Positions 21,001-64,000 of a DNA stretch of 64,000 bases are shown here, piece by piece (positions within the stretch are counted from its first letter, which is position 1; each line of letters opens with the position of its first letter). The DNA is from Amoebophrya sp. A120 (taxonomy: Eukaryota; Protista; Dinoflagellata): NCBI GenBank assembly GCA_905178155.1, contig CAJINV010000006.1:1613876-1677875 (forward strand), written 5' to 3'. The notes beneath the pieces are model-generated. The model saw nothing but the letters and a program-made list of their open reading frames with translations. It was not told where the DNA came from and searched no databases. The position numbers were made by a program, and so were the translations under genes.

Positions 21001-24000
21001 ATAGCTCCCCCGGACGGTGAACAAACCCCAACCCCGAAGCCACCGGCAAGTAGTACCACTACCAGCAGTACTACACCGACGATTTCCAGAACTTTTTACA
21101 GGGAGGGGCAAACCGTATGGGGAGTGGAAGACAACCGCCCCGACGCGGTGAAAAAACTTATGGTTCGAGTACTTATACCCCCGGCCGACCCGGACCACCT
21201 GTTCTTGAAGAGCGGGCACGTAGAATGTTGGAATGCGTGCGATGGAAGCAGTCTGAACAAAAAACGGGGGTTCTGCAGCAAGTGCCAAGTGCTCCACACA
21301 AAAGAGTTGGGTGATGGATTAGTTCAACGGAGCCCGCTGCCGGACGACTACACCGGAGCGTGCTGCCGGTACAACAAAAACACCCAGCGAGGCACGCCAC
21401 ACTCCTGGGACCACCACGACCCCCGCGAGTGCCGCATCCTTGGCGCGCTGAAGGGCAAGGGGCCGCAAAATTTCCTCTCGAAATTCTATTGGGACTGGGT
21501 GGACAATACCAACCGGGAGATCAACAAAGCGGGTTACATATGGATTGCAAATATCCCTGGACGTCTGGATGATTCTAAACTTGTGATGCTGTCTCTGGAT
21601 TCTAAAAAAATCTGTATTGCATGACCAGCAAGAGGACTCCAGCTTGTGCTACGCGGACGAGAGGGCATGTCTCATGCGGTAGAAGCATCACAAAGTCCTC
21701 TAAAAATCTGGGATGCTAGGGCATGCATCACAGACATCATGGGCCATTCAAAATAAGCATGACAAACTTGGCAATCTTCCAGACCCAGACATATTTGCAC
21801 TCGATATTACACGGACTACGACAATACAGAGGGGTACCACAGTTGCGTCGCGGTTCCCAAGTGGGTGCGAGACGGCACCTGCCTGAGCCCGGAAGGCGAC
21901 TGCAGTGAGGAAGGTTTGTGCGACAAGTGCAAAACGGACATTCTGACTGCGGAAAATAAACAAGGTGACCAACAGTACGCAAACCGCAAAGGCGCGTGCT
22001 GCAAAAAAGGGAAAAATTACGCCAGTGGCCATGCGTGCAACAACGTGAAAAAGAGTCCCGCTGGTGATGGTCAAGCAAAGTACCGGTTGGCGGACCTGAA
22101 GTTCAAAGACGATATCAGTGCTGAGGACGAGTTCTATGTTGCTGAGTGTGTGCTGGTCGACGACACTAGCACCGCGCCGGCGGGAACAGGTGATACTCCC
22201 ACAGAGGCCGCCGGCTTCCTCGAGGTCGAGCTTGCCGCGACAAAAAGAGAGTGCATATCGTAAGTGAAAATCCCCCCTCCCCATATCGAAAAGAAAATTT
22301 GTGATGCTGATTTGTGAGCACAAAAAAGCGTTGTCTTGCGTACAATGCAAACGGCACCCATGTGGTGCATTGTACAGCGAATCTGTCATGCGTTTTCGCC
22401 TATGTCAGACTTGTTTCTCATGCTCAGCTGCTGCTAGCCGGATGAATGCCCAGCAAATGGGCTCAGCATATAAAAATGCCGACATCAAGCTCCTGCTGCA
22501 TTGCAGCAGGAGCTTGACCTTGATGTCGGCATTTTTATATGCTGAGCCCATTTGCTGGGCATTCATCCGGCTAGCAACACAAATCCAGCAACACTGCGTC
22601 TGAGCAATACAAAGCTCATCTGTCGTGTACACAAATCCAGCAACACAAATTGTCTTTTGAATATGGGGCTGTTGGGGCTTTTTTCACTTTGATCGTGCCT
22701 CCCGCAGCAAAGAAAAATCCCGTGCGAGAATTTGGAGCTGTGTCCGAAGAACTGCACGCTCAAGCCGTGGACCGAAATATCATGAGAAAAAAGTGTATAC
22801 AATTCTGTCTTACACATTTGTAATGGACTTTCTCCATCACGAATTTTCTTCTGTGTGTGGCAGACAAACCTTGTAATGCAAAGATCATAAGGAAAAATCA
22901 AAATACGTGGGAAAGGAGGGGCGCAAGCATTTCCTGCATGACAAAGGTTGTCTGTCTTGCGGCACCTGCAACACAAACTGTAACACTTTTTTCTTGCGAT
23001 ACGAATGGGCAGATAGCCACTGCTCCGAGGATTGCGGGGGCGGTGAGCAGACCCGAACGAGGGCCATCCTGGAACCGGCAAAGTACCACGGAACGTGCTA
23101 TGAGGCCGACAGCAAGGAGCGGAAGGAAACGCGAGAGTGCAATACCGAAGACTGTCAGAACTGTGAACTGGGAGAGTGGGAAAAAAGCGGCGACTGCACC
23201 AAAACCTGTGTATCCAAGTGAAAAAGAAAAAAGCCCTCTCCACATGTTGAAAAGGAAATTTCTGTTGCTGGATTTGTGTACACAAGTCAGCTCTGTCTTG
23301 CAGTGAGGTACTACTGCAGGCAAAGCCCAGCCTGCGTAGGGGTGTTTTGGTTTAGGTGCTTAGCATAAAAGAGGCCTGCCGTGTAGGGGCAACAGCATTA
23401 CAAACCGCCTCCCTAAAGCGGCGCACTCTTTGGATTTGCCGTCTTGCAAGAGAGACAGGATTTGTGGCCACAAAGCAGCATCACAAATTTTTAGATGCGT
23501 GCCCTTTCAGTATGGGGAGGGGGGATTTTTCCTCACAATACTGCGGCGGCGGTATTCAGGAGTGGAGAAGGGATCAAGTGTATCGCAAGAAAAAAATGTT
23601 GCACTGTGAACTTGTGACGCAGAAAACGAAGCACCAAAGTGTTTGTCTTGCAGCTACACCTGCAAGACATTGGATTTTCAAGCGTGTTTTCCCTTTGAAA
23701 GCGCGCATGGCAAATTTGCCGTGTCATGTATAACAAACTTGTGATGCAGATCTTGCAAAATCAGAAAATCACCACAGTGAAACAGTTTTTTCCTGTGATA
23801 AAGTGAAAAAGCCGGGCCCGGGCGGACTACCCTGTTCCGAGGAGTATGACAACGACCACCTATGGATCTGTCAGGATTGAAATCGTCAAAGTTGAAATGA
23901 TTTGTCATGCATATAAATGCAAGGCATGAAGTGCCTGTCTTGACGGGATGGCAGAGCCGATCCACAACGAACGAACGGGATGGCAAGTGAGGCAGATTGT

Positions 24001-27000
24001 GAGCCTATTTAGGGTTTGGGGTAGAGCTGCTAAAGGAGCACGACAAAAGCAGTCGTCTGTGCCCAAACAGCATGACAAATTGGATTTTTCCGGTGCTCCG
24101 GAAATTTGTCATGTGCCGCTTGGAAATTAGTCTTCCAACTCGTATCCATTTTATGCATGGCAAATCATTTCAACTTTGTCGATTTCAAACCTGACGCTTC
24201 CATACCACCCGGACGCGAGGCACTACATCAACAATCCTTCACGACAATCCCGTCGGGGACCAGGACACCGTGATCCCCAGACCGACAATCCGCGCCGGAA
24301 GTACACGGAGTGCAGGACCAGCAAATGCCCAGTCGATTGCGAACTTGAGTCGCACTGGAGCACTGTATCCCCTTCGATAGCAGGTCCTGATGCAGCTTCT
24401 TCGGGGTTCTTGCAGAAGTTTGGCGACATCCTATCCTGAGTAAAAACGTACCCACACCAGAGTCAAGATGGGGAATCGGCTAGACAAATCCACAAGTTTT
24501 GTCTGTTTTGCATGACAAATTTGGATTCGTAGTATAGTGCTGCTTGCGCTAGCTCAGCAGCATCACATATCTAGCATACAATGCTGATTGGAGCATGACA
24601 AGTTGCAAAACACGACTAGAAAATGCTTCTCATGGAGCTCCGCATGAGAAACATTTTCAGCATGCAGATTTGCATTACAACTCTGGTGTGGGTACGTTTT
24701 TACTCAGGATACATCCAAGAACGAGGAATCAATGACAAGAACGATCCATGGAAAAATTATCAAAAGTAAAAATGTCTGGGTCTGGAAACTTGTGATGCTG
24801 GGTGGAGTCTCATGATGAGGCTACAGATGCTGGCTCAGCATGACAAGTTTCTGAGCTCCTAGGTGTTGCCTACTCTGCATGACAAACTGCGCTTCTGCAT
24901 CACAGAAAAACGGAGCTCTTGGGTAACGTGCATGACAGATTTAAGAGTCATGCCAGACAAGCATGACAAACATGAATTCTTCCAGACCCAGACATTTTTA
25001 CAGTTGATAAAAATAGCACTTCCGCGATTTATTTTCCGACAGCAGGTGTTGGCGCAGGAGCTTCTTCGACGTTTTTGCAGATGAAGAACTATGTCGACAT
25101 CCAGGAAGGAATCAACCGCGGGCTTTATAATGACGGGGAATGGAACACTGCGGACCCCAACAAGTGGTTCGGGCCCTTCCCTGCGGCGCTGCAGAAAGTG
25201 ATGCGTATGGCGTTCTCAACTGTTACATTCTCAACTGTTACATGAATTTGTGATGCATGAATGGCAAAAGTGGAAGGGGAGAGCTTGAGCGTCTTGCATG
25301 ACAGACTTGGCCCAGATTTAGACGCTGTTTAGCCATTCGAGAATTTGTCATGCGAAGCAGCTTGATCGTCTGGTGGCTCATCGTCATACTGCATGACAAA
25401 TCATGTAACAGTTCAGGATGTATCAATTGAGAGTCCCATAATGCGCGAGGAGTTTGGAAATAACAACGAAAAGTTTGATCTCTATACGGGCGAGACGGAG
25501 CTGTTTTTGCAGGACAATGAGCAGGGCCGCGAAAGCCGCTTTGGGCAATTTCCATACCATGACACCTGGCTGAATCCAAGGGAGCTGAGTGTGTGCGAAC
25601 AAAAGCTTTTTATGCTTGCGTTCAATGCTTACGCCAATGCTCACTTGGATGCCACTCAACCACTGAAAGCGAGTAAAATGGCACAGTATCAAAGTGCGCT
25701 TCAAGGGATCAATACAAAAGAACTGGCCGAGAAGTTCCGCGGCTATATATGGTCTGAAGGCTATTGCAAAAATATGCCTGCCGAATGCAAATATCGGTTG
25801 GGGTGGCGAGAACAGTGCGCGTCCCTCGAACCCGTTCCTGCTCCTGCTCCTGGTCCCACTGCTCCCACCGAAAATGATGTCGACCCCGCCTCGCTTGCGT
25901 CCTGTATTTTGCGAGGAAGTAAGCCGGAGCAGGGTCCGCACGTGTTCGAAATAAACAATGTCAATTACTACTGCCGTTTGAAAGACGAGCGGTACTTCAA
26001 GAAGAAAATTCTGAAAATCAAAACCCACCCCTCCACGGACACGACGCCAAAGGGGAAAGCTTGTCCCGCGAAGCTGTGTGACGAAGAGAACATACTATGG
26101 ATTGTAAAAATGTCTGGGTCTGGAAGGACGCGAACTTGTCATGCTAAGGCTGGATAGTACATGAATTTGTGTTGCATGATTGCCAAAAGGTGTCCACTTT
26201 TGAACAAGTTTAGAGGCAGTTTGTCATGCAGGATATTAGACATGATAGAGACTTCGAAGAATCTGTCATGCTAGGTCCTGCCTTACAGACCTCATGGGGC
26301 ATGGAAAATATGCATGACAAGTTTGCAATCTTCAGACCCAGACATTTTTACATTTGATACATACAAGATTGCGACAAAACCGAGGTGAACGAGTTTCACG
26401 ATTACGCTATCCTGAGTAAAAACGTACCCACACCAGAATTGTAATGCAGATTTGCAAAGACAGGAAGACTTGTAATGCGCATCCGCATGAGAGCCATTTC
26501 CAATCGTGTTTTGGAATTTGTGATGTTGTGAACAGGATGAGCAGATGAATCTGTGACGCGGCTGCACTGGCTAACCTGCACTACATTGCAGAGTGCAACT
26601 GGTCATGCGTGACTCACAAAGCCCCTAGGTTTGTGTTGCAAAATCCCCATCCTGACTCTGGTGTGGGCACGTTTTTACTCAGGATATACGCCGCCTGCGC
26701 GGCCCTCGAACGCTGCTCGCCCAAATGCGCGGCCGAGTTTGGAGAGTATGAGCTAATTCCCACCCCTGATTATGATTGCTTCCGCGGGGGCGGGGATTCA
26801 GATTCATCCACCCGGCCGGTATCCTGCGAAGTAGAGGAAGACGTAGTCGTTATCCTGAGCAAAAACGTCCCCACCCCAGAGTCAAGATGGGGGTATCGCA
26901 ACAGAAGTCGAAAAGTCCTGGGAGTCAAGCATGACAAGTTTCTCTCTGTATTGTCGTGCAGTTTAGCAAGTACAGCCGCAACACAAATCTATCTACTCAT

Positions 27001-30000
27001 CCTGTTTACAGCATTACACAGTCCAAAACACGATAGGAAATGCCTCTCATGGGGATGCGCATTACAAATCTTCCTGTAACTGCAAATCTGCATGACAACT
27101 ATGGGGTGGGGACGTTTTTACTCAGGATAGTCGTCAAAGACGGTGTGATTTTTTCCCTTCACGTAAAGGAGCACAATTACTACAAAATACGTGCACTGAC
27201 AAGCAGCCACGGCGGTGCCACCTGCCCGGTCGACGAGGATAGGGTGTGCAAGGAGGTTATCAAATGCAAAAATGTCTGGGTCTGGAAGAATCCGAACTTG
27301 TGATGCACATTTCAGAACACAGAAAAATCTCTCATGCATGGGTACTAGCAAAAGCTGCCCACTTTCTGTCACCAAAGCGGGGCGACATTTGTCATGGGGA
27401 TTCGGCATTGCGGAAGCTTCTCGAAACCTGTAATGCTAGAGCTTCCATGCCAGACCTTCTGTCTCATGCAAAAACAGCATGACTCTTCCAGACCCAGACA
27501 CTTTTACATTTGATAGAGGTGGTCTTCTTCTTCGGGATGTCGGAAACGCAAAAGAAGGAAAAAGAAGAACAATTATCAAATGTAAGAACTTCTGGGTCTG
27601 GAAGAATGCAAGATTTGTGATGCAGGTTTTCCATGACCCATGAGGTCTGGAATGCGAGACCCAGCATGACAGATTTTTTGAGGTCTCTATCATGCCTTTC
27701 CTGCGTGAGAAACTCCCTCTCAACTAGGTCGAAAGCGGACAGCTTTCGGTACTCACGCAACACAGATGTTTGCATCATTCGGATTTAGGAGCATGACAAG
27801 TTCTAATCCTCCAGACCCCGACATTTTTACATTTGATAACAATGCTATCGAGACCTTCTCTCCGGCATGTACCACGATTTCACCGAGTCGGAAAATTGCG
27901 AGAACCAGCTTCCCCCCTGCCCAAGGGACTGCGTGACTGGGGAGTGGAATCTGCTAAGCGCAGGCGGTAGCAGTCCGGATTCTTCATCGAACACGGCGGA
28001 GCAGCAAGCGGATCAGAACCAAACGACCCCCCCGCCAGAGTCTACGACGAGAAAAAGGCAGCGGCTCGAGTACGGAGGCAGTGCCACGGCGCACTTCGGA
28101 AGGCCCCCGTTGCATCGGATTCCGAATGCCGAAGGGACGTCGTTCACCATGGAGAAGCCTACGCATGCCCTTCCGCCCGGCGCGGACCTGGAGAAAACCA
28201 GAGCGGATTCGCGGTGTCACACCGACTATCAAGTGGAAAAATGTCTGGGTCTACTGGAAGATTGCCAGGTTTGTGGTCATGCATTTTTTGCATAGCCCAT
28301 GATGCCTGCAATGCATGGCCGAGCATCACAGATTTTTAAAGAAGGGCTTTCTGATGCGTATAATTCCGCATGAGAAGCGCCCACTCCTCGTAGCACAAAC
28401 TGAACTCCTCTTGCTGGTCATGCAATACAGATTTTTTTGGAATCCAAATGCAGCATCACAAGTTCGGATTCTTCCAGACCCAGACACTTTTACATTTGAT
28501 ACCGACCAGTGTTTGGACGAGGACGGGAACGACGGGCGACCCGTATCCTGTGCAAAAGTATCCGATACTCGTAGTTGTATTAATCGCAATTATGCATGAC
28601 GAATCTTTTTCTTAAGGTAAAACAGCATTACAAATTCCATTTCTAATGCTGAGGGAATTACTACTTATTTGTGATGCTATAATTTCTACTAGTACGTTAC
28701 TTTTGCAGGAGTTCATAACCCGACGAAGAGGGCAACTGCCGAATCAGGGCCTCCGCGGAGTCTGTAAAAGCCATGGACATGCACCCCCAAGACTTGACGA
28801 CGCCCACGACCGGCGCGGGAACAAGAAGACTACACCTTGGCAGTTTCTGCAAACCCGGATATTGGAATCGCTACGACCACCGGTACATAGACAAGGTCTG
28901 GTTGCAGTACCGGCAGATAGACGAGGTCTGGCACAGCACCTACCATGTCTGTTGCGTCAAGTACCACCCCGCGACTTCTACTGACGGAGAGGACTGCTAT
29001 CGGGAAGCGCATGAAGAGGACCACGCGTCTTCATCCACGACCGGGGAGGAAGGAGCTGCTCCACCTGCTATCCGCGATCTTCATCCGGTGACGTGCAAGA
29101 TCAAAGACGAGGACTACTACAAGATTCGCCAGGTCCAAATCTTAGTGCCGGCGAAACACGTATGGAAGTGTCAGAATCGAAATTGACAAAATCGAGAAGC
29201 TTGTGATGCGCAAAATCGACGCCACTTAGAGCCACAGTTTGTAGTCGGCGCATGACAATAAATTCTCCCCGTCCTGGAAGCGAATCTGTCATGCGGTCTA
29301 AGGAAAAAGAGCTGCCTTCTGTCATGCTAGTCAGCAGCCCAACACTCAAACCCTTACCAGGACGACAAGCCGCCTTCCTTGCATCCTCTGCAATAGAGTC
29401 GCTTTTTGCGTAGCATTTTATGCATTACATTTACAGATCATTTCGATTTTGTCGATTTCGATCCTGACACTCCCATAACACGACGGAAAGAAATGCCCGG
29501 ACAAGGAAGCTTTATGCGACACGAAGCTTTTATTACATCAGAGTACTTCTTCTAACAATAAGAGGAAAGTGGAGGAACTGTGTTTGCAAAAGCACTTCAA
29601 GTTTTACCGCGATTTTCGCGCCGGCGCAGAATGTGGCGACACTAACACCGACACCCTGCCAAACCTGCCGTTTTGCCCGATTGATTGTGTCTTAGAGGAT
29701 TCGTTCACTTCTCTGAAGCCGTCAGATGAAGAGGACTTCCCCGGAGGTGGAGCAACTTCCGGCACCACCTCCAGTGGCACCACGACAAGTTCCACTCCGT
29801 TTGCGCAATGCGTGCGTGACGTAGCAGGACCACCTGGTGAAGATGCCGGCGCGAACAAAGAAACCACGATATCCTGTTTAAAAACGTTCCCACACCGGAG
29901 TCAAGATTGGGAAATCTGCTACACAAATCAACCAGCCTTGGTTGTCTGGCATGACAAGTTTGTCCTCGTTGTGTAAAAATCCTGTTTAGCTAGTTCGGAA

Positions 30001-33000
30001 GCGTCACAGATCTAGCAGAGCATGCTGATTCTAGCATCACAAAGTCCACAACACGAATAGAAAACGCTTCTCATAGGCCTCCGCATGAGAAACATTCTTC
30101 GCATGCAGAATTGCATGACAACTCTGGGGTGGGCACGTTTTTACTCGGGATACACGACAAAAAAGCCCCACGTGAACCGCCTGCACCCGGAGGAAATATC
30201 CTGTGCAAAAGTATCGTACTCGTATTGCAATCATGCAATACAAATATCTTAAGGTAGATTCGCATTACAAATTTTATTTCTCATGCTGCGGAAATTTGTA
30301 ATGCATTTATACGATGAATACGATACTTCTGCAATGCATAGGAAAACGATGCCGACCATTTCTGCAAGAAGCCGAATGAAGAGTACTACGAGCGCAAGGT
30401 TAGAAAGGTGAAAGAAAGCCCGCAACACGGTGGAGCAGAGTGCGCTACGGGGGTTTGTGACGGGAAGAAGAAGGACAGCAGCACCGAGTGCTATTGCAGT
30501 GAAAAGTGCCCCCCACCCCTGAAAGTGCAAAATTTGTGATGCGAAGTTTCCAAATGAAAACTTTCTGTCATGCATGGAAGGAGTATGGATGTTTCTGATG
30601 CAGAGTCTAGGCATGTATCGCATCGCCTGCATGACAAGCGCCGCTCTTGCTGGGGCCTTTTGCAATACAAATTTTTGCTATTCACGATTGAAAACCTGTG
30701 ATGCTGATAGATGCAAGAGCGCGAATGTTTCATTTGGAAAGGTTTGCAATACAAATGCTTTCAAGTTCGGGGGTGGGGGCAATTTTCCTCGCGATAAGTG
30801 CGATCTAGCAACGGACCGGTTCTACAAAGACTACAAGGCCTGTGAGGCGTATGGATGTGTCAGGTTTGAAATTATCGACAAAGTTGAAATAATTTGTAAT
30901 GCATAAAATGGATGCCAGTTGGAACCCAGTTGCCAAGTGGCGCATGACAAATTTCGGTGGTCCCTAAATCCAGTTTGTCATGCTGTTTAGGCAAAGAAGA
31001 GCGATTTTCTCATGCTACTTTAGCAGCTCGATCTGTAACCCCAAACAGGCTGACAATCGGCCTCACTTGCCTGCTCTGCAACACACGTACCTCGGGTCAT
31101 GCATTTTATGCATGCCAAACTATTTCAACTTTGACGATTTCAAACCTGACACATCCATAAGGCGCTGAAGCCCTGCCCCATCGACTGCGAGCTTGGTGCG
31201 GAGTGGATTGTTATCAAATGCAAAAATGTCTGGATCTGGAAGAATGCCAGACTTGTCATGCAGGTTTTCCATGACCCATGAGGTCTGGCATGTAGGACAT
31301 AGCATGACAGATTCTGTGAGAGTTCTATCATGCCTGTCCTGCATGAGAAACTGCCTTTCGATTAGGTCAAAAGTGGACAGCTTTTGGCATATCATGCAAC
31401 ACAGATTTTTACATGATTCAGATTTAGCATGACAGGTGGCGTTGTTCCAGAGGACCCAGACACTTTTGCGCTTGATGATCGTAGGCTATGAGTCAATTTT
31501 CAAAACATCGACGACGTATCTGAGCGAGGAAGAGGCAAGAGGGAAAGCAATGAACGACCGCTGCCGCTCCAGCGCTGTGCAGTGGAGCACGTCGGCGGGT
31601 AGTGCCATCGCCTGCTCCACCATCTGCGACCCTCGTCAGGACGCTATCCTGAGTAAAAACGTACCCACACCAGAGTTGTCATGCAAATCTGCATGCCAAA
31701 AAAGTTCGTCGTCTCTTCCGTGAGAACAAAAACGTAAGGCGTAAAATGGGTCGGGTCCTGGATCGTTCTGTATGTTGGGCTGTCGCGCTCGGCTAGCTGG
31801 CCGGGCTGTACTGATCAGGTGTGGTGGGTAGCTCCCGACTGGTTGGTACTTTTCATGGGGCGACTTGCCGTGGTAGCGCTCGGCTTTTGTATGATGAGGT
31901 CGCCGAAAGTGCTTCCTCGCCCACCCCCCGGGGAGGGGATCCTTGACCTGTGGCGCTGGGAGCGGGTGTCCACTACATGATGATGATGATGATGATGCGG
32001 AGCGCAATGAGAGGCATTTTCTAGTCGTGCTTTGGAATTTGTGATGCTATAATCTGCATGATATACTAGATCTGTGATGCTGCTGAACTACCTAAACAGG
32101 ATTACACTACGAGGAGAAACTTGTCATGCCAAATGACCAAAGCTGGCTGATTTGTCTAGCAGATTTCCCATCTTGACTCTGGTATGGGGACGTTTTTACA
32201 GATGATAGACGCGTGGAGCTGTTTTTTCCAGCCGCAGGGACGAGATAGGGCATTCTCAGACGTCACGTTCTCAGCTCCCATTAAATAAATTTGTCATGCA
32301 AAACCACCATCAAGATTCACACGATCAAGCTGCTTCGCGTGACAAATTTGCGAAGGGCTAAACTGCATGAGGCGTCGAATCTGTAATGCGAGTGCTGCAA
32401 GCATTGCAAACTTCGGCTGTTGCTGCTCTTGCATTGCAAATTCACGTACGTGTTAACAGCTCAGAATGTAAACGTGGTTTGAAAACGCCATAAGAGAGTG
32501 CGCGTGCGTCGATCACGAGGCGGTTTATGCTCCGGACTATAAAATAAATTCAGCTTCTAGCTCAGGCGGAGAAGGAGAACAACCCCGACGGAATAAACAC
32601 AGGGAAAGTACAGATTGCTACAAAGACACAACGGGCAGTACTAGCACCGCGGCAAAAGCAAAAGCAGAAGCGAAGCCGGGGGCTGCTGCTTCCTTTCTGT
32701 CCTTCTGGTTCGCGGCGCCAGCGCCGGAGGGAGGAGGTAGAAGTACGTATGAATTGCAAAAGTGTCTGGGTCTGGAAGAATGCAAGCTTGTCATGCTTAT
32801 CTGGCATGACTCAAGAATCTGTGTTGCATAGGCACGAAAAAAGCCCTCTTACCTGTCATGCAAAAACGCAGTTTGCCATGCAGAATACGTAAGACATGGC
32901 AGCCAAAAAATTTGTCATGCATAGCTGCGAATTCCAGTGCGTCTATCATTCACTTTTAGTATTACAAGCTTCCAGACCCAGACATTTTTGCAATCCATAG

Positions 33001-42000: not shown

Positions 42001-45000
42001 GACTTTGTTGCCCTCTTGCAAGAGAGACAGGACCACTTGTGGCCACAAATCAGCAGCGCAAATTCTTAGAAGCATACCTTTGCAGTATGGGGACGAGGGG
42101 GGATCTTTCCTTTTGATATTGCAACGTAGACAACGATGGCCACCGCCAGGGTAACACTCTGGCATTATGTCAACAGTGGTGTCAGCAAGATGGGAACTGT
42201 GCATGTTGGTCTTTTTGTGGAAAAAACCAGTGTAAGCTAACGACCCCTCTATGCATTGCAAAAGTATCGTACTAGTATAAATCGCATGACAAATTAGCTC
42301 AGCATTACAAATGAAATTTGTAATGCTATTTTGCCTTAGGAAAGAGATTTGTAATGCATAAATGCAATTAGTACGAGTACGATACTTTTGCACAGGATAC
42401 CCTCTGCCCGGCTACAACTGTTGCTGGTTGAAACCTCTCAACGACTATGGAAGCGTCAGGATTGAAATCGTCAAAGTTCTTGAAGTATATAACTTGTAAT
42501 GCATAAAATCGATACCAGTTGGAAGCCCAATTCCCAAGCCGTGCATGACAAATTTTGGTGGTCCTTAAATCCAGTTTGTCATGCTCTTTAGGCAAAGAAG
42601 ACTGATTTTCTCATGCTACTTAACCAGCTCGAGCTCTAACCCCAAACAGGCTTTTTACGATCGGCCTCACTTGCCTGCTCTGCAACACACGTACCTCGCG
42701 TCATGCATTTTCTGCATTACGAAGTATATTTCACCTTGTCGATTTCAAACTTGACACTTCCATAACGACATCATTGAGTTTAATTTTGACAGGTTTCCCG
42801 GTTACACCAGCGGGTGCTGTTACTACGACTCAAGCACCTACTGCTCGAACCAGTGCGTAAACAACGCCGGGCCGTTATCCTGAGTAAAAACGTCCCCACG
42901 CCAGAGTTGTCATGCAGATTTGCAATGACAGGAACATTTGTAATGCGCATCGCCAGGAGAGGCATTTTTAGTCGTGTTTTGGAATTTGTAATGCTGTAAA
43001 CAGGATGAGCAGATGGATTTCTGATGCAGCTGGCCTTGCGAACCTGCACTACACTACGGACTGCAACTTGTGATGCGTGACCCCCAAAAGTTGTAGGCTT
43101 GTGTTGCAAAATCCCCATCTTGACTCTGGTGTGGGGATGTTTTTACTCAGGATAGCCGTGCGAGCGGTATTACATGGCAAAAATTGAAACCTACCCAAAA
43201 ATATGAACTGCAAAAGTATCGTACTCGTATAAATGCATTACAAATTTCCTCATGAGAAAGAAAATTTGTGATGCGGATTTGCTTTCAGAAAAAAACTTGT
43301 AATGCATGATCGCAATACGAGTGCGATACTTTTGCACAGGATAAAAAAACGGCGGCAAACTGTGCGGGGAGGGACGGGACCTGTTTCGCTATCCTGAGTA
43401 AAAACGTACCCACACCAGAGTTGTAATGCAGATTTGCAAAGACAGGAAGACTTGTAATGCGCATCCCCATAAGAGCCATTTCCAATCGTGTTTTGGAATT
43501 TGTGATGCTGTGAACAGGATGAGCAGCTGGATTTGTGATGCGGCTGCACTTGCTAACCTGCACAACACTGCAGAGTGCAACTTGTCATGCGTGACTCACA
43601 AAACTCCTAGGTTTGTGTTGCAAAATCCCCATCCTGACTCTGGTGTGGGTACGTTTTTACTCAGGATATTCGCAAGGAGGTATTCACGGTAAACCCGTGG
43701 CAAGGCCCCGGGACCGCCGTAACCAATAGCAGCTGCCAGGACGAGGTGCAGCGGTGCGAGCAAGACATGACGGCGGACTGGAGCGCCTGCAGCGTGACCT
43801 GCGGGACTGGTGGCAAACAGTACCGAACGCAAAGAATTACCAAGCACCCCTACTTCATCACGTCTGCGGACATGGCCTGCAAGGAGCCCCTGATTGCCGT
43901 ACGGGACTGCGACCCGGCGCCCGCCGCGTGTCCAGCAGGTGGATTCGAGCTGGACTTTTGTCCGACAGACTGCGAGCTGGGAGGCTTCGACACGAACGAC
44001 GATCTCGTGAACTTGGAGGACTGCAAGCGGAAGGACTTGGACCTTCCCCCGCACGTCGACCGCACCACCGGCAAGTACTGCAGGGCGGACGAAACGGAGC
44101 ATTATTACGCGGTGCGCGTCCGGCCGATCACCACGCAGCCGCGCGGGAAGGACCCGACGGCCTGCGGGGAAGACGTGTGCAACAAAAACGCTAAGATATC
44201 CCTATGGCGTTCTCAACTGTTACATTCTCCACTGTTACGTGATTTGTCATGCAAAACTACCTTAAGCCGACAGATAATCAAGCTGCTTCGCATGACAAAT
44301 TTTCGAAGGACTCAACAGAGCCTAAATCTGTGCCAAATCTGTGATGCGAAAGCAGCAAGCTGGCCCCTTTGACTGTTGCCATTCTTGCATCACAAATTCA
44401 TGTAACAGTTGAGAATGTAACAGTTGGGAACGCCATAATCCCTCACGGGGATGGATCCGAACGGGGGGTGCAAAGCGACCGTATCCTGTGCAAAAGTATC
44501 GTACTCGTATAAATGCAAGTCGTGCATTACAAATCTTGTTCCCAAGGCAAATCTGCATTACAAATTTTATTTCTCATGCTGAGGAAATTTGTCATGCATT
44601 TATACGAGTGCGATACTTTTGCAGTCCATAGACCGATCGCTTTTACCACGACTACGGTTCCGGCAAGTGCAGCACCCTGCCGATCTGTCCCGTCAACTGC
44701 GCAACGACGGAGTGGAACACGACGCAGCCTGGCTTTGCGCGCTGCATCAGAGAAGAAGTATCAAATGTAAAAATGTCTGGGTCTGGAAACTTGTGATGCT
44801 GAGTGGCGTAGCATAAGGAGGCCACAAGTGCTGGCTCAGCATGACAAATTTCTGAGCTTGTAGGTGTTGCCTATTCTGCATGACAGACTGCGTCTCCGCA
44901 TGACAGAAAAAAACGTCTCTTGGGCAATGTGCATGACAGATTTAAGAGTCATGCCAGACAAGCATGACATCAATAAACATGCATTCTTCCAGACCCAGAC

Positions 45001-48000
45001 ATTTTTACATTTGATAAGAAGGACCCGAGAACATTTTCGCGGTCGAAGAGATCCACACGAACCGCACGCGGCTCCTCGAGCCACCGCCGTCCGTGCTCGA
45101 GCTGCACCAAGAAGCATCGCAGGACCCGAACTGCCCCCGCACGCCGCACGCACACCACCTCGGGTACGAAAAAGATGGCGTATCCTGAGTAAAAACGTCC
45201 CCACACCAGAGTCAGGATGGGGATTTTGCAACACAAACCTAGGAGTTTTGGGAGTCACGCATGACAAGTTGCACTCCGCAGTGTAGTGCAGGCTAGCAAG
45301 TGCAGCCGCATGACAGATTCATCAGCTCATCCTGTTCACAGCATCACAAATTCCAAAACACGATGGGAAATGGCTATGGCTCTCATGGGGATGCGCATTG
45401 CAAGTCTTCCTGTCTTTGCAAATCTGCATTACAACTCTGGCGTGGGTACGTTTTTCCTCAGGATATGGCGTCGGGGCGCGCTACGCTTACGACGCAAGAA
45501 GCTATCAGGCCTGCCTCCTTTTGTGCGTCGACAACTCCAGGTGTATCCACAGTAAATTTCCTGTAGTACACGTACAAACGCTGTCTCTGCATGACAAAAT
45601 TTGCCTTCAATCCTAGTCTAGCATGACAAGTTGGACACTGCAAGTTAGCGAAATTTGTCATGCATTTTGTACATGTACGGGAAATTTACATTGCATAAGG
45701 TGCAAGGGCTTTACATACCGAGTTGATGTACCCCCACCAGCATCTTCTTCCTCTACGGGAGAGCAGCTGCCCGGCGCAGCAGATGCTTCCTCGTCCTCTG
45801 CCGGACCGGTTACAGAATACCCGATTCCCCGATCGCGGGATGCCACCGAATACTGCGCGAGGCTGGAAAATGTCGACTTTCCCGATAGCGATGAGGATCT
45901 GATAGAAGACGACGGTAAGTTGTTCGGGAATAATCTCGGAGAGTTATCGTAAGGAAAAATCCTAATCCCCTTTCCCCATATTGAAAACGTACCCTCCTGA
46001 AAATTTGTGTTGCAGATTTGTGACCACAAATCCGGTTTGTCATGCAAGAAGGCAAATCCAGGCTGTCTACCGCGTTATGTAGGCGATTTGTAATGCTGTA
46101 AGGCCTACAGGGCAGACGTCTGCCATGCTAGGTGCCTACAGCAAGAGGCCCCTGTCTAGGCTTGCGAACTGCGTGCGTTGCTCTATTGCAGGACAAATTT
46201 GATTTGTGCGCAGAAATTCCGCATCACAGATTTCCGTCTTGATATGGGGAGGGGGGATTTTTCATTTTGATAAGAGTGGAAGAAGACTGGCGGGGATAAC
46301 AAGGACGTGTGGCAGAATGCGATCCGTGGGCACAAAACGTTTCACGAGTGTTGGGCTGCCTGTTTAGACGAAAAAGACTGTATGGCCTTCGTGTATAAGA
46401 TATCAAATGTAAAAATGTCTGGGTCTGGAAGATTCTGACATTTGTCATGCACGTTTTGCATGAGCCATGATGTCTGTGATGCATACCCTAGCAATACAGA
46501 TTTTTTGAGGGCTTCTTGATGCCTATTCCGCATGACAAATGCCTCCTCAGCGTAGCAAAAGTTGCATTCTGTTTGCTACTCATGCAATACAGATTTTTTT
46601 GGAATCCAAATACAGCATCACAAGTTACATTCTTCCAGACCCAGACATTTTTACATTTGATATAAGAAAAAGCTCACCGTCGACTCCGCGGAAGACAACT
46701 GCTTGCTAAAGTCGCGCCTGCGACTCGAGACCGCGACGTACACCAATGACGAATCCGCTTGCTGCGACTCTGTGCTGATGCCCCCCAACTGCAAGGAAAA
46801 GGTGAAAGCGGTGAAAGATGTTGACCAGTCGGATGGAGGTCGTGCCTATCAAATGCAAGAATGTCTGGGTCTGGAAGATTGCGAGATTTGTGATGCATAT
46901 TTCGGATCACGCAAATGGCGTCTGATGCAGGCAAAAGCATGACAGGTTTTGAGCACGCCTCATGATGCCTGTCCCGCATGAGAAACTTCCTACCTGCGTA
47001 CCAAGAAATGGACAGCTTTTGGCGCTCATGCAACACAAATTTCTGTGTGTTGCAGAGTTTGCATGACAAGTTCCAACTCTTCCAGACCCAGACATTTTTG
47101 CATTTGATAGTGCCCCCGCCCAGCCGACGTGTTTTCTTCTCGACGACGCTGACCGTGTATGAAAGTGCACAACTCCCCTCCCCCTCATTTGTCATGCAAA
47201 ACACCAAATCCACGTCCTGCCTTTGGGCATTATCTGCATGCCAAATTTGGGAACCTCAAACAGCACTACGACCTGTATGCAGATTTGTCATGCGGAAGTC
47301 ACATGTCTGCGGTTACTTGTGTTGCTGTTCATGCAATACAAATGAGGGGGAGGGGGAGTTGTGCGCCCTTATACCGTAAATTTGCCGTGGAACAGAATGA
47401 TCCCAGCGCTGATACCTTCGCCGTGGAGATGACCGCCGCCTGTCGGCAGTCAAAACAGACCAAGTGCGATATGACTTGCTCAAGCGTTACAATCTCAAAC
47501 GTTACAATAGAATCTGGAATTTGTGTTGCATGATGGGCATGACAGACTCGCACAGCGTTCCACCTTTTGCAATACAAATTTCCCCTGATTGTAGTGGGGT
47601 TTGGAGCTCCGGAACTTGTCATGCGCAACCCTATGAGAGTTGGCTGGATCATGCTCATCATGCAAGACATCAAATCTCAGATTCTATTGCAACGTTTGAG
47701 ATTGTAACACCTGAGCGGGTTATATCCGAGGGCTGCCGCACCGAGAGCGACCACGTAAACGATTGTTCGCTTACCTGTGCTGGCCGCGGGGGTAGCGGTA
47801 GCAGCAGCTCGGGCGATGATCAAGATTCGGCGAAGGATAGAAACCCCGCCGCGGGCTGGTGCTCGAAGTGCGATTCCCAGGATGGCACGCTGCACGGCGC
47901 CGTATGGATTTGTCAGGATCGAAATCGATAAAGTTGAAAGAATTTATGTATGATGCATGAAACGGATGTAAGTTGGCGCCCAGTTTTCAAGTGGCGCATG

Positions 48001-51000
48001 ACAAATTTGGGCGAAACCAAAACCCAGTTTGTTATGCTGCTTGGGTAAGGAAGACGCCTTTTGTCATGCTACTTTAGCAGCTCTATTTCTGCAACCTCTC
48101 GGCAGGCTTATAACCTGCCTCACTTGCCAACTCTGCAAGCCAGGCATTTTGTGGACACACGCCCCGGTTCCATAGTCACAAAAATGCACAGTAAAAGTTT
48201 GATCTTATCTTAAATGCATTGTAGGTTCAAAAAGGACTTCAAAAAATGACTTGCATAGAGACACACTTAAATTTGTGTGATAGGTCCAATCGGTTTATAA
48301 ATTTCTACATGCAGAGCGACTTTGTAGTTTTTGGCTCCTTCACACAAATTTAGAACGGAAAATCAAAAAATAAAGATATGATCAAACTGAGGGGGAACGC
48401 ATACAGCATAGGAATTGCACTGAGAGGATTTTATGCTTGGACTTTATGAACCGCGCACAGGAATCCGAATTCGCCGCACATTAATGGGCTCGACTTTGCG
48501 TTGGGTTTAGGCCGGTGCTCAAGGCGAGGAGAAGGAATTTCTTCGTGGATTATCTAAACAACAACGACGAGAACAACACCGATGGGTTGATTACGGTTGG
48601 AGTGTAAGTGTTCCGAGTACTTTAAATTACAAGTTTTTCAACTTTGTCAATTTCGATCCTGACGCAACTTCCATACGCGTGCTGTCAGGCGTACAACTAC
48701 GCCGATCCGAGCGAGTGTCGCCACGACTACAATTTTCTGTTGCAGACCCGGCCCTCGCACGCACGGAAATATCACCAGTGTGTTTTGCCACAGGTGCGGC
48801 GCCCGAAGTATTCGGCGGCGGTTCTGTATGGAAGCGTCAGGATTGAAATCGTCAAAGTTGAAATAATTTCTCATGCATAAATTGCAAGGCATGAAGTGCC
48901 TCTCTTGCAGGGACGGCAAGTGAGGCCGACTGTCAGCCTGTTTGGGGTCTGCGGTAGAGCTGCTGAAGTAGCGTGACAAAAGACGCCTTCTGTCCCAAAA
49001 CAGCATGACAAACTGGATTTAGACGTGGCCGAAATTTGTCATGCGCCGCTTGAAAATTGGACTCCCAACTGGTATCGATTTTATGCATTACAAGTTATTT
49101 CAACTTTGTCGATTTCAAACCTGACACTCCCATATTCTGGACTCCTCGTCCACCCTGCGTGCTGTTCCGACGCCAGAGAATATCGCAAGAAAAAACTGTT
49201 TCACTGGGAACTTGTGATGCAGAAAACGAAACACCAAAGTGTTTGTCTTGCTACACCTGCATAGAGCATTGGAGTTTCTTCACGCGTGTTTTACCCTATA
49301 GGAAATGCACGCATGGCAGATTTTCAGTGTTATGTGTAAACAAACTTGTAATGCAGATCTTGCAAAATCACCACAGTGAAGCGGCTTTTTCGTGGGATAG
49401 AGAAGTACTGCGGTCCGCCAAACACCTTTTTCCAGAAGATTTTCCTATCCTGTGTAAAAACGTCCCCTCCAGCCCAGAGTTGTCATGCAGATTTGCCATG
49501 ACAGGAGCATTTGTGATGCGCAACCCCATGACAGGCGTTTTCAATAGTGTTTGGGAATTTGTAATGCTGTAAACAGGAAGATAAGCAGATCGATTTGTAA
49601 TGCGGCTTTCCTTGCTATCTTTCACTACCTTAACCTTACGGACTGCAACTTGTCATGCGTCACCTCCAAAACTCCTAGGTTTCTGTTGCAAAATCCCCAT
49701 CTTGACTCTGGGGTAGGGACGTTTTTACTTCGGATATTTCCGCGAGGTGATCCATCCGGCCAAGGGGGAAGGCGCGCTGTCTTGCCCACCCGACGTACGA
49801 ACTGCAAAAGCATCGCACTTCTAGTAGTAATTGCCTAATACAAATTACCTCAGCATGACAAATGGAATTTGTGATGCTGTTTTAGCTTGGGATGGTGGAG
49901 ATTTGTAATGCATAACTGCAACTACTACGAGTGCGATACTTTTGCACAGGATACGCCGAGTTAGAGAGCAACACCGCGCCCCTTGGGCCTGGCACCGGAT
50001 CGACTTACCACCTGTATCGTAATTGGACAGCCTGTATGAAGTGCAAAACAAGCATCGTACCTGTATAAATTGCAATACAAATTGGCTCAGCATTACAAAT
50101 TGAATTTGTAACGCGGATTTGCCTTGAAACAAAGATTTGTAAATGCATAAAAGCAATTAATAGTACGAGTGCGATACAACTTTTGCACAGGACAGCCTGC
50201 GCTGCCGTGCCGGAGTGCCCGGTGGACTGTATCAAATGTCAAAATGTCTGGGTCCTCTGGAAGATTGCCAGGTTTGTCATGCACGTGGTGCATGACGTGT
50301 GAGGTCTGTGATGCGTGCCCTAGCATCACAGATTTTGTGAGATCTTTACCATGCCTTTTCCGCATGAGAAAATGCCTCTCGGCCTTCTCAAAAGTGAACA
50401 GCTTTATTGGTAATCATGCTGCGTGATTCCCTGGGTCTTACAGTTGCATGATGCAACACAGATTTTTGTATGATTCAGATTTAGCATGACAAGTTGTACT
50501 CTTCCAGACCCAGACACTTTTGCAATGCATAGACTGTAAGACTTCGGCGTGGAGGACGGATGAAACTGCGGACGACTGCTTTTATGGATTGTAAAAATGT
50601 CTGGGTCTGGAAACTTGTGATGCATGTCAGTGAACGGAAAGCGCCTTGTAATGCACCGCCAAGCATGACAGATTTTCTCGTGGCTCTCTGTTGCGTATTC
50701 CGCATGAGAAACATCGTTTTTGCATGACAGACAAGAGGAGGTCTTCGTGGCCACGCAATACAGAGTTCAGAGTCATGCCAAACTAGCATGAGAAATCTCG
50801 AAATCTTCCAGACCCAGACATTTTTGCAATCCATAGTTTTAACAACAAAACCAATTTGCCCGACAACTCTCTCGTGGACGGTACCTACCCTGTGTAAAAA
50901 CTTTTCCAACTATATGCAAGAAAAAAACTATGTGAGTGTAAATCTGTGATGCAGAAAGTGCAAAACTGTTACACTTGTCATGCTGGATCTGCGTCATACG

Positions 51001-54000
51001 CTACTTTCATACGTGTTTCCACGTACTAGCTGCGCATGACAGATTTTCCCTGTAATGCAAAGGTAATTTGTGATGCTGCTTTTCCTACACAGTTACACTT
51101 ACACAGTTTTTTTCCTGGATAAACTACCCATAGTTCTTGCCATGCAAATCTGCATTGGAGGTGAAAATGTCTCTCACGCGGAGCCCCATGACACGCATTT
51201 TCTACTGCTGTTTGAAGTTTGTGATTTACCTACAATCAGCATGAGAAACAAGATTGGTGATGCTGCTGCGCTAGCTCAAGATCGCGATTACATTTTTGCG
51301 AACCCAGCAAATTTGTCATGCGCAACAGCCAAAGCTTGCTAATTTGTCTTGCAGATTTCCCAACTTGTTGACTCTGGGGTCGGGCCGACGTTTTTACATA
51401 TGATTACACGCCCTGTCTCAAGGACGGGGAGCGGTACTACAGAAGAAAGGTCCGCGACGTGGATATCCTGTGTAAAAACGTCCCCACCCCAGAGTTGTCA
51501 TGCAAATGTGCAATGACAGGAACATTTGTAATGCGCATCTCCTTGAGAGGCATTTCCAGTTGTGTTTTGGAATTTGTAATGCTGTAATCAGGATGAGCAA
51601 ATGGCTTTTTCATGCGGCTTTCGTTGCGAACCAGCACTACACTGCAGATGGAAACTTGTCATGCAGAACTCCCAAAGCTTGGAGATTTGTGTTGCAGATT
51701 TCCCATCTTGACTATGGTGTGGGGACGTTTTTACATAGGATAGTGGAAACGCCAATGCTTCATGGTGGGAAGGAGTGCCCGAGTGGGTGGTGCAAGGCCG
51801 GGGAACTGGAGCAATTGTTCAAATTATTCCATGACAAGCTCGCGGCCCGCCCAACATATCCTGAGTAAAAACATCCCCACACCAGAGTCAAGATGGGGAT
51901 TTTGCAACACAAACCTAGAACTTTTGGGGGTCACGCATCACAAGTTGCAGTCCGTAGTGTAGTGCAGGCTCGCAAGGCCAGCTGTATCAGGAATCCATCT
52001 GCTCATCCTGTTTACAGCATTACAAATTCCAAAACACGACTAAAAATGCCTCTCCTGGCGATGCGCATTACAAATGTTCCTGTCATTGCAAATCTGCATG
52101 ACAATTCTGGCGTGGGTACGTTTTTACTCAGGATACAACATCGCAGCGGGTCACGTTTGAAGACATCGACTCGGAGGCTATCAAATGTAAAAGTGTCTGG
52201 GTCTGGAAGATTGCCAGGTTTGTCATGCACATTTTGCATAACTCCTGATCGATCTGTGACGCATGCCCTAGCATGACAGATTTTGTGAGGGCTTCCTGAT
52301 ACCTACACCGCATGACAAATGCTCTTTCCGTGTAGCAAAAATTGGACTCTCTTTGCTGCTCATGCAATACAGATTTTTTCAGGATCCAAAATCAGCATGA
52401 CAAGTTGGATTCTTCCAGACCCAGACATTTTTACAGTTGATAGAGGCAGTAACGGACCAACAACTGACCGAGCCTGAGGTGATTACCTTCGTGGACAACG
52501 GTGTTGACAATGATGACACCCTGCTGAATATCAAATGTAAAAGTGTCTGGGTCTGGAAGAATGCATGTTTGTCATGCTTGTCTGGCATGACTCGAGAATC
52601 TGTCATGCACGTTGCCCAAGAGCCGCATTTTTCTGTCATGCGGAGACGCAGTTTGTCATGCAGAATAGGCAACACCTACAAGCTTAGAAATTTGTCATGC
52701 TGAGCCAGCACATGTGGCCCCCTCATGCTACGCCACTCAGCATCACAAGTTTCCAGACCCAGACATTTTTGCAGTTCATACTGAAGACGAAGAAGCAGTT
52801 TTTCTCCTGGATCCGAAGGCAGGACCCCGGCCTATCAACTGTAAAAATGTCTGGGTCTGGAACAAAGCAACTTGTCATGCTATATCAATATCTGAATCAT
52901 GTAAAAATCTGTGTTGCATGATTGCCAAAAGCTGTCCACTTTTGACCTAATCGAGAGGCAGTTTCTCATGCAGGATAGGCATGATAGAACTCTCACAGAA
53001 TCTGTCATGCTCTGTCCTACATGCCCGACCTCATGGGTCATGGAAAACCTGCATGACAAGTCTAGCACTCTTCCAGACCCAGACATTTTTGCACTTGATA
53101 CGGCCTTCCTGGTTACCAGAGCCCCGGCGCCGACCCAGGGTTCGAAAACATCGGGAAAGAGGAATGGCTGACAACTTTACATCTGCAGTTTGGCTTGGAG
53201 TGGATCGAAAAGAAGGATTTGGACAATCTGAAAAAAGTTTTGACCGGGGGGCCGCAGGTTCAGAACACGGACACCTGCATATGACAGTGCACAACTCCCC
53301 CTCCCCTTCCTTTGTCATGCAGAGCCCCAAATGCAAGTGCTTCCCTTTGGCACTGTTTGCATGACAGATTCCGGAAGGAGCCCAAACGCAAACAGTGCTA
53401 CACGAGGCGCATAAATTTGTCATGCACAGGCTCCACATGTGCTGGTGTTTGTATTGCTGTTTGTGCAACATCAGAAATGAGGGGGAGGGGGAGTTGTGCA
53501 CATTCATACTGAAAGGATGCGCTTCACTACAAAGATTTCGACGATGACTTTTGTATCAGCAGTAGCGGATACAAAGATAAGCTTCCCCGCTGTCCTATCG
53601 CATGCGAAATGACGGTATGAACTGCAAAAGTATCGTACTAGTATGAATCGCATGACAAATTTCCACAGCATGAGAAATAGAATTTGTGATGCGGATTTAA
53701 CTTGGCAAAAAAATTTGTAATGCATGAATGCGATTAGTACGAGAACGATGCTTTTGCAGAGGATAGACGGACTGGGAGGATGATTTGTCCCATTTTGGAC
53801 ACTATTAAATGCAAAAATGTCTGGGTCTGGAAGAATGCATGTTTGTCATGCTTGTCTGGCATGACTCTTAAATCTGTCATGCACGTTACCCAAGACCTCC
53901 ATTTTTCTCTGATGCAGAAACGCAGTTTGTCACGCAGAGTAGGCAACACCTAGTAGCTCGGAAACTTGTCATGCTGAGCCAGCACTTGTGGCCTCATCAT

Positions 54001-63799: not shown

Positions 63800-64000
63800 T
63801 ATGCAAGAAAAAACTGTGTAAGTGTAAGTGTAACTCTGTAATGCAAAAAATGAAAAACGATTATTTTTTAACGCTTGTCATGCTCCACATGCATGATGCG
63901 CTCGCTTCCTACGTGTTTTCATTTCCCGTCCTATCTGCGCATGACAAGTTCTTCCTGTCATGGCAGACAAAGTTGTGTGTGATGCTGTTTTCCCAAAAAA

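Follow-up and report, generated by a model that had tools for sequence, protein, structure and literature searches.

The window analysed here, i.e. the whole stretch of 64,000 nucleotides (nt) of Amoebophrya sp. A120 (contig CAJINV010000006.1, forward strand, positions 1,613,876 to 1,677,875), is occupied by one giant gene that is interrupted by 147 transposon-like elements. The elements begin with TAT, end with ATA, are flanked by 5-nt direct repeats and belong, as judged from these features, to the introner family already published for this organism. The family is known; the rule that seems to govern its removal is new. Where the two repeat copies differ, the coding sequence makes it likely that the elements are all cut in a single fixed register, the intron starting 1 nt ahead of TAT and ending 4 nt past ATA. 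Our best explanation goes a step further and is held somewhat less firmly: it is rather probable that A120-type introners are removed at this single register, the agent probably being a spliceosome that reads only U at position +2 and A at position +3. We describe the register by k, the number of repeat bases supplied by the left copy; k=4 corresponds to an intron of the form N-TAT…ATA-NNNN.

A giant gene filled with introner elements

The gene spans positions 280..63795 on the plus strand and is open at both ends of the window. Once the 147 elements are taken out of this span, 7,286 stop-free codons are left; no canonical intron is needed to read the gene, and 66% of its span is intron. To find the elements, the sequence was scanned for TAT…ATA pairs and with end profiles, and the candidates were curated by hand with the reading frame as a guide (an element at 19-275 was omitted as it has no clean pairing, and another opens at 63800). 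Their median length is 263 nt, and 135 of 147 interiors match another interior at E<=1e-10. The direct repeats are perfect in 104 elements and imperfect in 43, left and right copies agreeing in 131-140 of 147 elements at repeat positions 1-5 and in 15-40 at 7 flanking positions. When each element was removed together with n further bases (n=0-8), the open reading frame (ORF) of 7,286 amino acids was obtained at n=5 only, the other values giving 391-3,121 amino acids. This restoration of the reading frame implies that the elements would be removed from the mRNA. The intron phases are distributed as 57/50/40.

The exons of the giant gene match TSP1/spondin models and also contain EF-hand-like segments. 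Amoebophrya is a marine parasite, and the TSP1-repeat architecture suggests that the giant protein may be adhesin-like. The protein itself was absent from the databases searched (1.8 billion representatives, with a ceiling of 2,000 residues); a search with a window exon yielded a single protein, an A120 paralog (P0001 = CAD7953262.1, 51% over 79 amino acids). We note that the gene, with more than 7,200 codons and about 6.7 introners per kb of coding sequence, is several-fold above the 1.42 introns per kb reported for A120.

In the available parts of Farhat 2021 (PMC7789003), the A120 introner elements are described as sequences of about 240-260 nt, in many families, with an inverted repeat of TAT, seven looser bases and an A run, a hairpin, and direct repeats of 3-5 nt (5 bp in Fig. 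S19). They are reported there as introns supported by RNA-seq against the genome, with 'no clear splicing signature', and the legend of Figure S23 places the inverted repeats '1-5' nt from the splice sites. More than 60% of A120 introns are reported to be non-canonical; the introns of strain AT5 are canonical. The elements studied here have the same anatomy: in the pooled set of 471 elements (see below) positions 1-3 are TAT and positions 11-14 mostly A at both ends, the direct repeats are 5 nt long and perfect in 358 of 471, and copies recur across the window and in a second assembly. With regard to mobility, no cognate transposase was found in A120 by Farhat 2021 as far as the available text goes, and A120 introners with transposase-like ORFs are reported in PMC12130899, likewise available in part.

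Mismatched repeats point to one register

The register can be read wherever the two repeat copies differ and the difference alters the protein, which is the case for 28 of the 43 imperfect repeats; 20 window elements bear on positions 4 or 5. The initial annotation had proposed a single register from five such elements within 22773..53513. All five start with TAT and end with ATA at the positions it gave, the repeat pairs are as it described, and its readings of the codons hold, i.e. TGA or TAG arises from the right copy at 53280 and 34167, the Cys at 47470 comes from the left copy only, and the Trp at 22778 and the GACC motif at 47903 need the right base 5. Its figure of about 43 imperfect repeats applies to the full window; within 22773-53513 there are only 21 among 75. 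The introns predicted at these five elements, and at two further informative ones, are as follows.

4078..4412, plus strand: predicted intron, core 4079-4408; repeat TAAAA/AGAAA; a stop would arise at k=0
12730..12977, plus strand: predicted intron, core 12731-12973; repeat ACTGC/TCTGC; Asn from left base 1
22777..23005, plus strand: predicted intron at k=4, core 22778-23001; repeat CGAAA/CGAAT; Trp from right base 5
34166..34414, plus strand: predicted intron, core 34167-34410; repeat TGGGG/TAGGG; TAG from the right copy requires k>=2
47469..47728, plus strand: predicted intron, core 47470-47724; repeat TGCGA/TCCGA; k>=2 required for Cys
47902..48679, plus strand: predicted intron, core 47903-48675; repeat CGCCG/CGCGT; mismatches at positions 4 and 5
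53279..53512, plus strand: predicted intron, core 53280-53508; repeat CTGCA/CTGAA; TGA from right base 4 requires k>=4

The number of stops in the frame of the giant gene for k=0..5 is 3, 2, 1, 1, 0 and 0, respectively, and all 3 register-dependent stops arise from right-copy bases at positions 1, 2 or 4. The registers k=4 and k=5 are thus free of stops, but under k=5 a Trp and a Cys retained by internal homologs would be lost. The Trp at 22778 is present in 7 of 11 ungapped internal homolog columns, the Cys at 53280 in 2 of 2, and at 12731 the homologs have D or N in 10 of 14 columns; no homolog column covers the Cys at 47470. At 47903 the change at position 4 is synonymous and the protein informs on position 5 alone: the motif C[SD]KC…GACC is seen twice elsewhere in the giant protein, GAGC never. 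Under k=4 the mRNA would read CGCCT at this site, and as both positions 4 and 5 are mismatched, a single read would fix the register. In other words, k=4 is the only single register that is compatible with both the stops and the conserved residues. The proposal that one register serves all five elements is partly supported; a mixture of k=4 with k=3 or k=5 is also conceivable.

Scores over all junctions show the same tendency. The summed internal-homolog score is +3.0 for k=4, -5.9 for k=5 and -16.6 for k=3, with 53280 and 22778 driving the peak. Junctions could be scored in 21 cases, of which 13 are in favour of k=4, 6 tend weakly away from it and 2 tie (7 more have no homolog). A coding model, trained with the mismatches masked, gave sums of 13.4 for k=4, 11.5 for k=5, 7.6 for k=3 and about -12 for k=0/1. 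The direction of AT/GC change in the repeat mismatches carried no consistent signal, and a relaxed element search added 64 candidates with 8 readable mismatched junctions, none of them decisive. DNA contigs of run X5 agree with the right copies of 34167 and 47470 and with the left copy of 47903; this run is possibly the source of the window sequence, so that the agreement is not independent.

A pattern scan found the same element ends in at least 146 loci of the second assembly, with 383 unique elements in 586 kb among the loci listed. The locus finder treats both ends alike and the strand was set by coding potential, by which 324 of 383 elements could be oriented and 59, with no confident strand or frame, were dropped. 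The 70 oriented imperfect elements of these loci contributed no further stop that separates k=3, 4 and 5. One locus was informative through its protein: L058 (5121-10275) carries a PseB-like gene for a bacterial-type UDP-N-acetylglucosamine (UDP-GlcNAc) 4,6-dehydratase in which all 15 introns are of this element type. Its product after splicing at k=4 is identical to P0002, an annotated A120 protein, in 356 of 357 residues; at a junction with the repeat ATGCC/GTGCG the annotated protein reads MRG (k=1-4), neither VRG nor MPG. We note that this gene was possibly acquired horizontally and invaded by introners later. A Pfam search of 61 exon pieces beside mismatched locus repeats gave clear matches that bear on a junction for three cases only, namely SNF2, helicase-C and the PseB-like gene; for SNF2 and for enoyl-CoA hydratase the alignment ends just short of the junction residue.

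The upper bound on k thus comes from three conserved-residue cases (22778, 47903 and L058). Under a uniform distribution of k over 0-5, the probability that six strong window cases (4079, 12731, 34167, 53280, 22778 and 47903) and L058 would all agree with k=4 is about 0.07, i.e. (5/6)^4 x 4/6 x 2/6 x 4/6. Together with the pattern of stops and residues, this disfavours a broad spread of registers.

The two ends of the elements are not conserved alike

The ends of a transposon should decay alike unless splicing constrains one of them, so that an asymmetry between the ends is informative. It is conspicuous that TA is intact at the 5′ end in 147 of 147 window elements, as against 136 of 147 at the 3′ mirror position (p=8e-4); in the second-assembly loci the corresponding numbers are 323 and 312 of 324 (p=0.003). 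In the pooled set the first T is kept in 471 of 471 5′ ends and 457 of 471 3′ mirrors (p=1e-4), and the second base, A, in 470 and 462. The third base shows the opposite bias, with 455 at the 5′ end and 466 at its mirror, the first A of ATA (p=0.025). From position 4 to position 16 the two ends are alike (p>=0.18). The loose positions show a change in about 3% of elements; changes are rarer at the 5′ T and the 5′ A and, to some extent, at the first A of ATA. At k=4 the constrained bases correspond to +2 (T), +3 (A) and -7 (the first A of ATA). The constraint on the 5′ TA hence marks a functional signal oriented by transcription, and the data fit a donor of which +2U/+3A is all that is left. 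In donors generally, the U at +2 is the base that can least be spared. An apparent canonical intron of a second-assembly locus (L027, read by eye) starts with GTAAGT, i.e. likewise with +2T/+3A.

The rest of the usual signals could not be recognized. At k=4 the 147 5′ ends read GT in 50, CT in 42, AT in 39 and TT in 16 cases, T alone being fixed, so the elements lack the 5′ GT (or GC/GA) of U2-type introns. The initial annotation had remarked that the donor is GT when N is G, which is true, but G is not enriched (35 observed and 31 expected in 104 perfect repeats). The 3′ AG of U2-type introns is also lacking: GT-AG occurs in 10 of 471 elements at k=4, and no register gives more than 3 of 147 in the window. 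The target repeat has no marked base preference. An Rfam search yielded 0 matches, as did a comparison with viral contigs.

RNA reads and the published splice-site pairs

Of 11 runs, four were presumed to be RNA, with a small share. Runs X1, X2, X9 and X5, the last of them a DNA run, were aligned to 33901-53900. X9 gave 22 reads, almost all partial and derived from repeats; X1 and X2 fell mostly on element repeats, with exon-only bin depths of 0 and 0.23. The best 15 of 2,126 joints were all repeat-driven and came from the DNA run. A 214-nt contig of X2, a run presumed to be RNA, equals the exon 48710-48821 exactly up to the next repeat and then continues, as would also be expected of a spliced contig.

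Table S4 of Farhat 2021, in the available part of PMC7789003, gives nine predominant non-canonical pairs for A120, all with an NT start. We considered this list as independent RNA support and rejected it, since sliding of junctions within perfect repeats reproduces it. In the simulation the sliding rule chose the best partial GT..AG match within a perfect repeat, with a BLAT-like scoring; it accounts for Table S4 at least as well as fixed k=4 does, AT-AT for instance being 3.3% under sliding and 0.5% under fixed k=4. The table neither proves nor contradicts the register. The same simulation indicates that the published splice-site variability may largely be an alignment effect. As a side observation, all nine predominant pairs listed in this table for the related strain A25 start with TT, and the elements of that strain start with TTA, which would likewise give U at +2 and A at +3; sliding was simulated for A120 only.

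Possible mechanism and alternatives

In the mechanism that we propose, the paired ends of an element would form a hairpin that brings the intron ends together and leaves 1 nt free on the 5′ side and 4 nt on the 3′ side. For a spliceosome of relaxed specificity, NUA would suffice as a minimal donor that lacks G at +1, the acceptor would be set by the distance from the hairpin base and not by AG, and the A at -7 is a candidate branch point. When the first 150 elements were folded in silico, the terminal helix formed in register in 124 of them. The marked end of one asymmetric family lies on the 5′ side in 25 cases and on the 3′ side in 17, i.e. the family occurs in both orientations. We would give even odds to the combination of the joining hairpin, the NUA donor and the distance-set acceptor, and regard spliceosomal chemistry of the excision as a similarly balanced question. 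The role of the first A of ATA is doubtful; its retention (466 of 471, as against 455 of 471 at the mirror position) is suggestive only. Because both ends carry TAT, an element could insert anywhere and in either orientation and be spliced out with one copy of the duplication, and such self-removal would explain the extreme density of the elements. As a tentative extension, rather improbable as a whole, tens of thousands of A120 introns would be removed by a U1-independent spliceosome with an NUA donor, the branch A of the mirror ATA and ligation 6 nt downstream, A25 following the same +2U/+3A rule with a different element.

A number of observations weigh against a fixed k=4 or against its spliceosomal form. 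No spliced read over a mismatched repeat was found in runs X1, X2, X9 and X5 on 33901-53900. The bound k>=4 has a single hard case, the stop at 53280. The six junctions that lean off k=4 are 15534, 19692, 22256, 33070, 38083 and 38523, each by at most 2 BLOSUM units. The sign test of the coding model (52 of 88, p=0.11) is not significant, and at position 5 the model prefers the left base in 9 and the right base in 10 cases. In view of the one-residue difference between L058 and P0002, the repeat mismatch may be absent from the annotated genome; the homologs of this junction, M-R in 119 of 119, are a biased set, having been selected for words in common with the query, and M-H stands at this position in the 2gn4 chain. 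The invariance of TA suits k=5, with T at +1, equally well unless spliceosomal chemistry is assumed, so that the asymmetry would favour k=4 over k=5 through analogy with the canonical donor alone. There is no preference for G at +1 (among 28 position-5 mismatches the left base is G in 8 and the right base in 7), and G at +1 is not significantly more frequent where TAT has decayed (8 of 17 vs 144 of 454, p=0.19). There is no 3′ AG, since AG stands at repeat positions 3-4 in 27 of 358 perfect repeats, as at other positions. Finally, the candidate branch A falls within the predicted stem, and the legend of Fig. 3 in PMC7789003, as far as available, speaks of splice sites whose position relative to the hairpin varies and states that the border 'remains unknown'.

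The last statement leads to the alternative that the register varies between or within introns, mostly among k=3, 4 and 5, with the hairpin fixing only the total length and perfect repeats hiding the slippage. Apart from the weakly deviating junctions, this is in line with the coding model, which hardly separates k=4 from k=5, and with the single introner classes of Polarella, which yield introns in several frames as far as the available part of the source goes. On the other hand, no strongly informative junction contradicts k=4, the observed agreement would be uncommon under a uniform k (see above), the invariant 5′ T suggests a fixed donor, and the variability described by Farhat is expected from alignment over perfect repeats. 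We consider a variable register unlikely. Any other fixed register, i.e. k=5 (TAT…ATA-NNNNN) or k=3 with the contrary junctions taken as tolerated substitutions or a damaged allele, is very improbable: k=5 creates no stop and places the invariant T at +1, but it would turn a conserved TSP1 Trp into Arg, GACC into GAGC and MRGGE into MPGGE, while k=3 puts TGA at a conserved Cys. Stop reassignment is reported for another Amoebophrya; it is unlikely for the giant gene, which has 0 in-frame stop codons in 7,286.

It is also conceivable that k=4 is fixed and the excision is non-spliceosomal, by a structure-guided nuclease and ligase or a separate machinery of the kind proposed for euglenids. Neither G+1 nor AG is preferred, the U1 small nuclear RNA (snRNA) was not found in A120 (PMC7789003, available parts), and the euglenid introns, according to the available text of PMC11282704, have a stem that is also offset more at the 3′ side and leave as circles, the offsets here being 1 and 4. 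In contrast, the strand-specific invariance hits +2T/+3A as in a canonical donor, and the same parts of PMC7789003 report 83 of 89 spliceosomal proteins as well as U2, U4, U5 and U6 for A120; we therefore regard this route as less likely still than a variable register. Sequences eliminated from DNA in ciliates resemble the present elements in having inverted ends and direct repeats without splice dinucleotides. This likeness in anatomy is the argument for removal from DNA and not from RNA, which nevertheless has a barely noticeable probability, since the elements and their exon flanks are contiguous in the DNA run X5, the end constraint is oriented with transcription, and Farhat validated the family as introns by comparing RNA-seq with the genome (PMC7789003, available parts). 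Removal from RNA at the fixed register k=4 remains the reading that we prefer.

Individual elements

Two further elements of the giant gene have an unusual structure.

50885..51409, plus strand: degenerate element, core 50886-51405, that encloses a perfect one (50913-51121, AACTA repeat) close to its 5′ end
54105..56381, plus strand: longest element, core 54106-56377 (2,272 nt), with normal ends and a perfect CGGCG repeat

In the nested pair the introner 50913-51121 sits 27 nt into the 5′ inverted repeat of the older element; either the two are removed together as one intron, or the inner one is spliced first. The longest element contains a GC-rich tandem array, with 12.6 copies of a 68-nt unit, as well as another repeat region, and the 6 ORFs scanned gave no Pfam match at curated cut-offs and no transposase-like one. 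A very degenerate element at 59014-59723 (repeat GCGGG/ACCTT, 5′ end G-TAG) still keeps the frame on removal and contains telomere-like TTTAGGG-type repeats (59178-59215) and short GC-rich tandem arrays.

Neighbouring introners may be separated by micro-exons (12388-12425, 32208-32245 and 1617-1623 in the window, 6980-6992 in L058). In the smallest one, 1617-1623, the cores are 7 nt apart and both repeats overlap, so that 2 nt of exon are left at k=4. In L027 the introner 6771-7074, with the k=4 donor AAG|GTATCC, adjoins the apparent canonical GTAAGT…ACAG intron 7140-7347; the pair sits in a multifunctional enoyl-CoA hydratase gene.

Significance and comparison with known systems

If true, a fixed register would turn the 'broad variability of splicing motifs' into one rule and an alignment artefact, fix the annotation of about 30,000 A120 introns, indicate where the lariat should be sought, and show with how little of the GU-AG code a spliceosome can manage. 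The end of a transposon would then suffice as a splice signal in either orientation and, at any site of insertion, would delete the target duplication that the insertion had created. As about a quarter of the elements (113 of 471) have mismatched repeats, existing RNA-seq data can decide the register. No statement of a fixed register or of a constraint on the 5′ TA was found in the non-subscription literature as far as its texts were available, including PMC7789003, PMC12130899, PMC11453091, PMC11282704, bioRxiv 2020.10.14.339549 and bioRxiv 2025.08.15.670264; Figures 3 and S19-S25 of PMC7789003 may hint at one. To the A120 introners as published in the parts available, the present analysis adds a probable fixed register, the reading of repeat mismatches and the constancy of TA at the 5′ end.

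The elements have terminal inverted repeats, putative target duplications of a fixed length, and no coding capacity, i.e. they resemble miniature inverted-repeat transposable elements. The following comparisons refer to the available parts of the sources cited. The nonconventional introns of euglenids (PMC11282704) share non-canonical ends, terminal pairing and target-site-like repeats with the present elements, and the stem is offset farther from the 3′ than from the 5′ junction, as predicted here. However, their stem is at +4..6/-8..-6 (CAG/CTG), the junction is pyrimidine|purine and the products are circular, whereas here the stem would begin at +2/-5, with an invariant +2U/+3A; TAT follows directly after the repeat, which has no marked base preference. 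The introners of Polarella, Symbiodinium and Aureococcus (bioRxiv 2020.10.14.339549) are likewise inverted-repeat transposons whose target duplications create introns, some in either orientation, and in class 12 of Polarella, with a 5-nt duplication, the donor spans the last duplicated base and the first element base. Those introners depend on G[TCA] and AG, supplied by either the element or the target, and hence are biased in insertion site and intron phase; neither G nor AG is recruited here. The non-GT/AG introns of Fritillaria borealis (bioRxiv 2025.08.15.670264) are also transposon-derived and non-canonical, and a modified spliceosome is involved there; they keep the terminal motifs AG-AC and AG-AT, whereas the predicted introns of A120 would have N at +1 and NNNN at the 3′ end.

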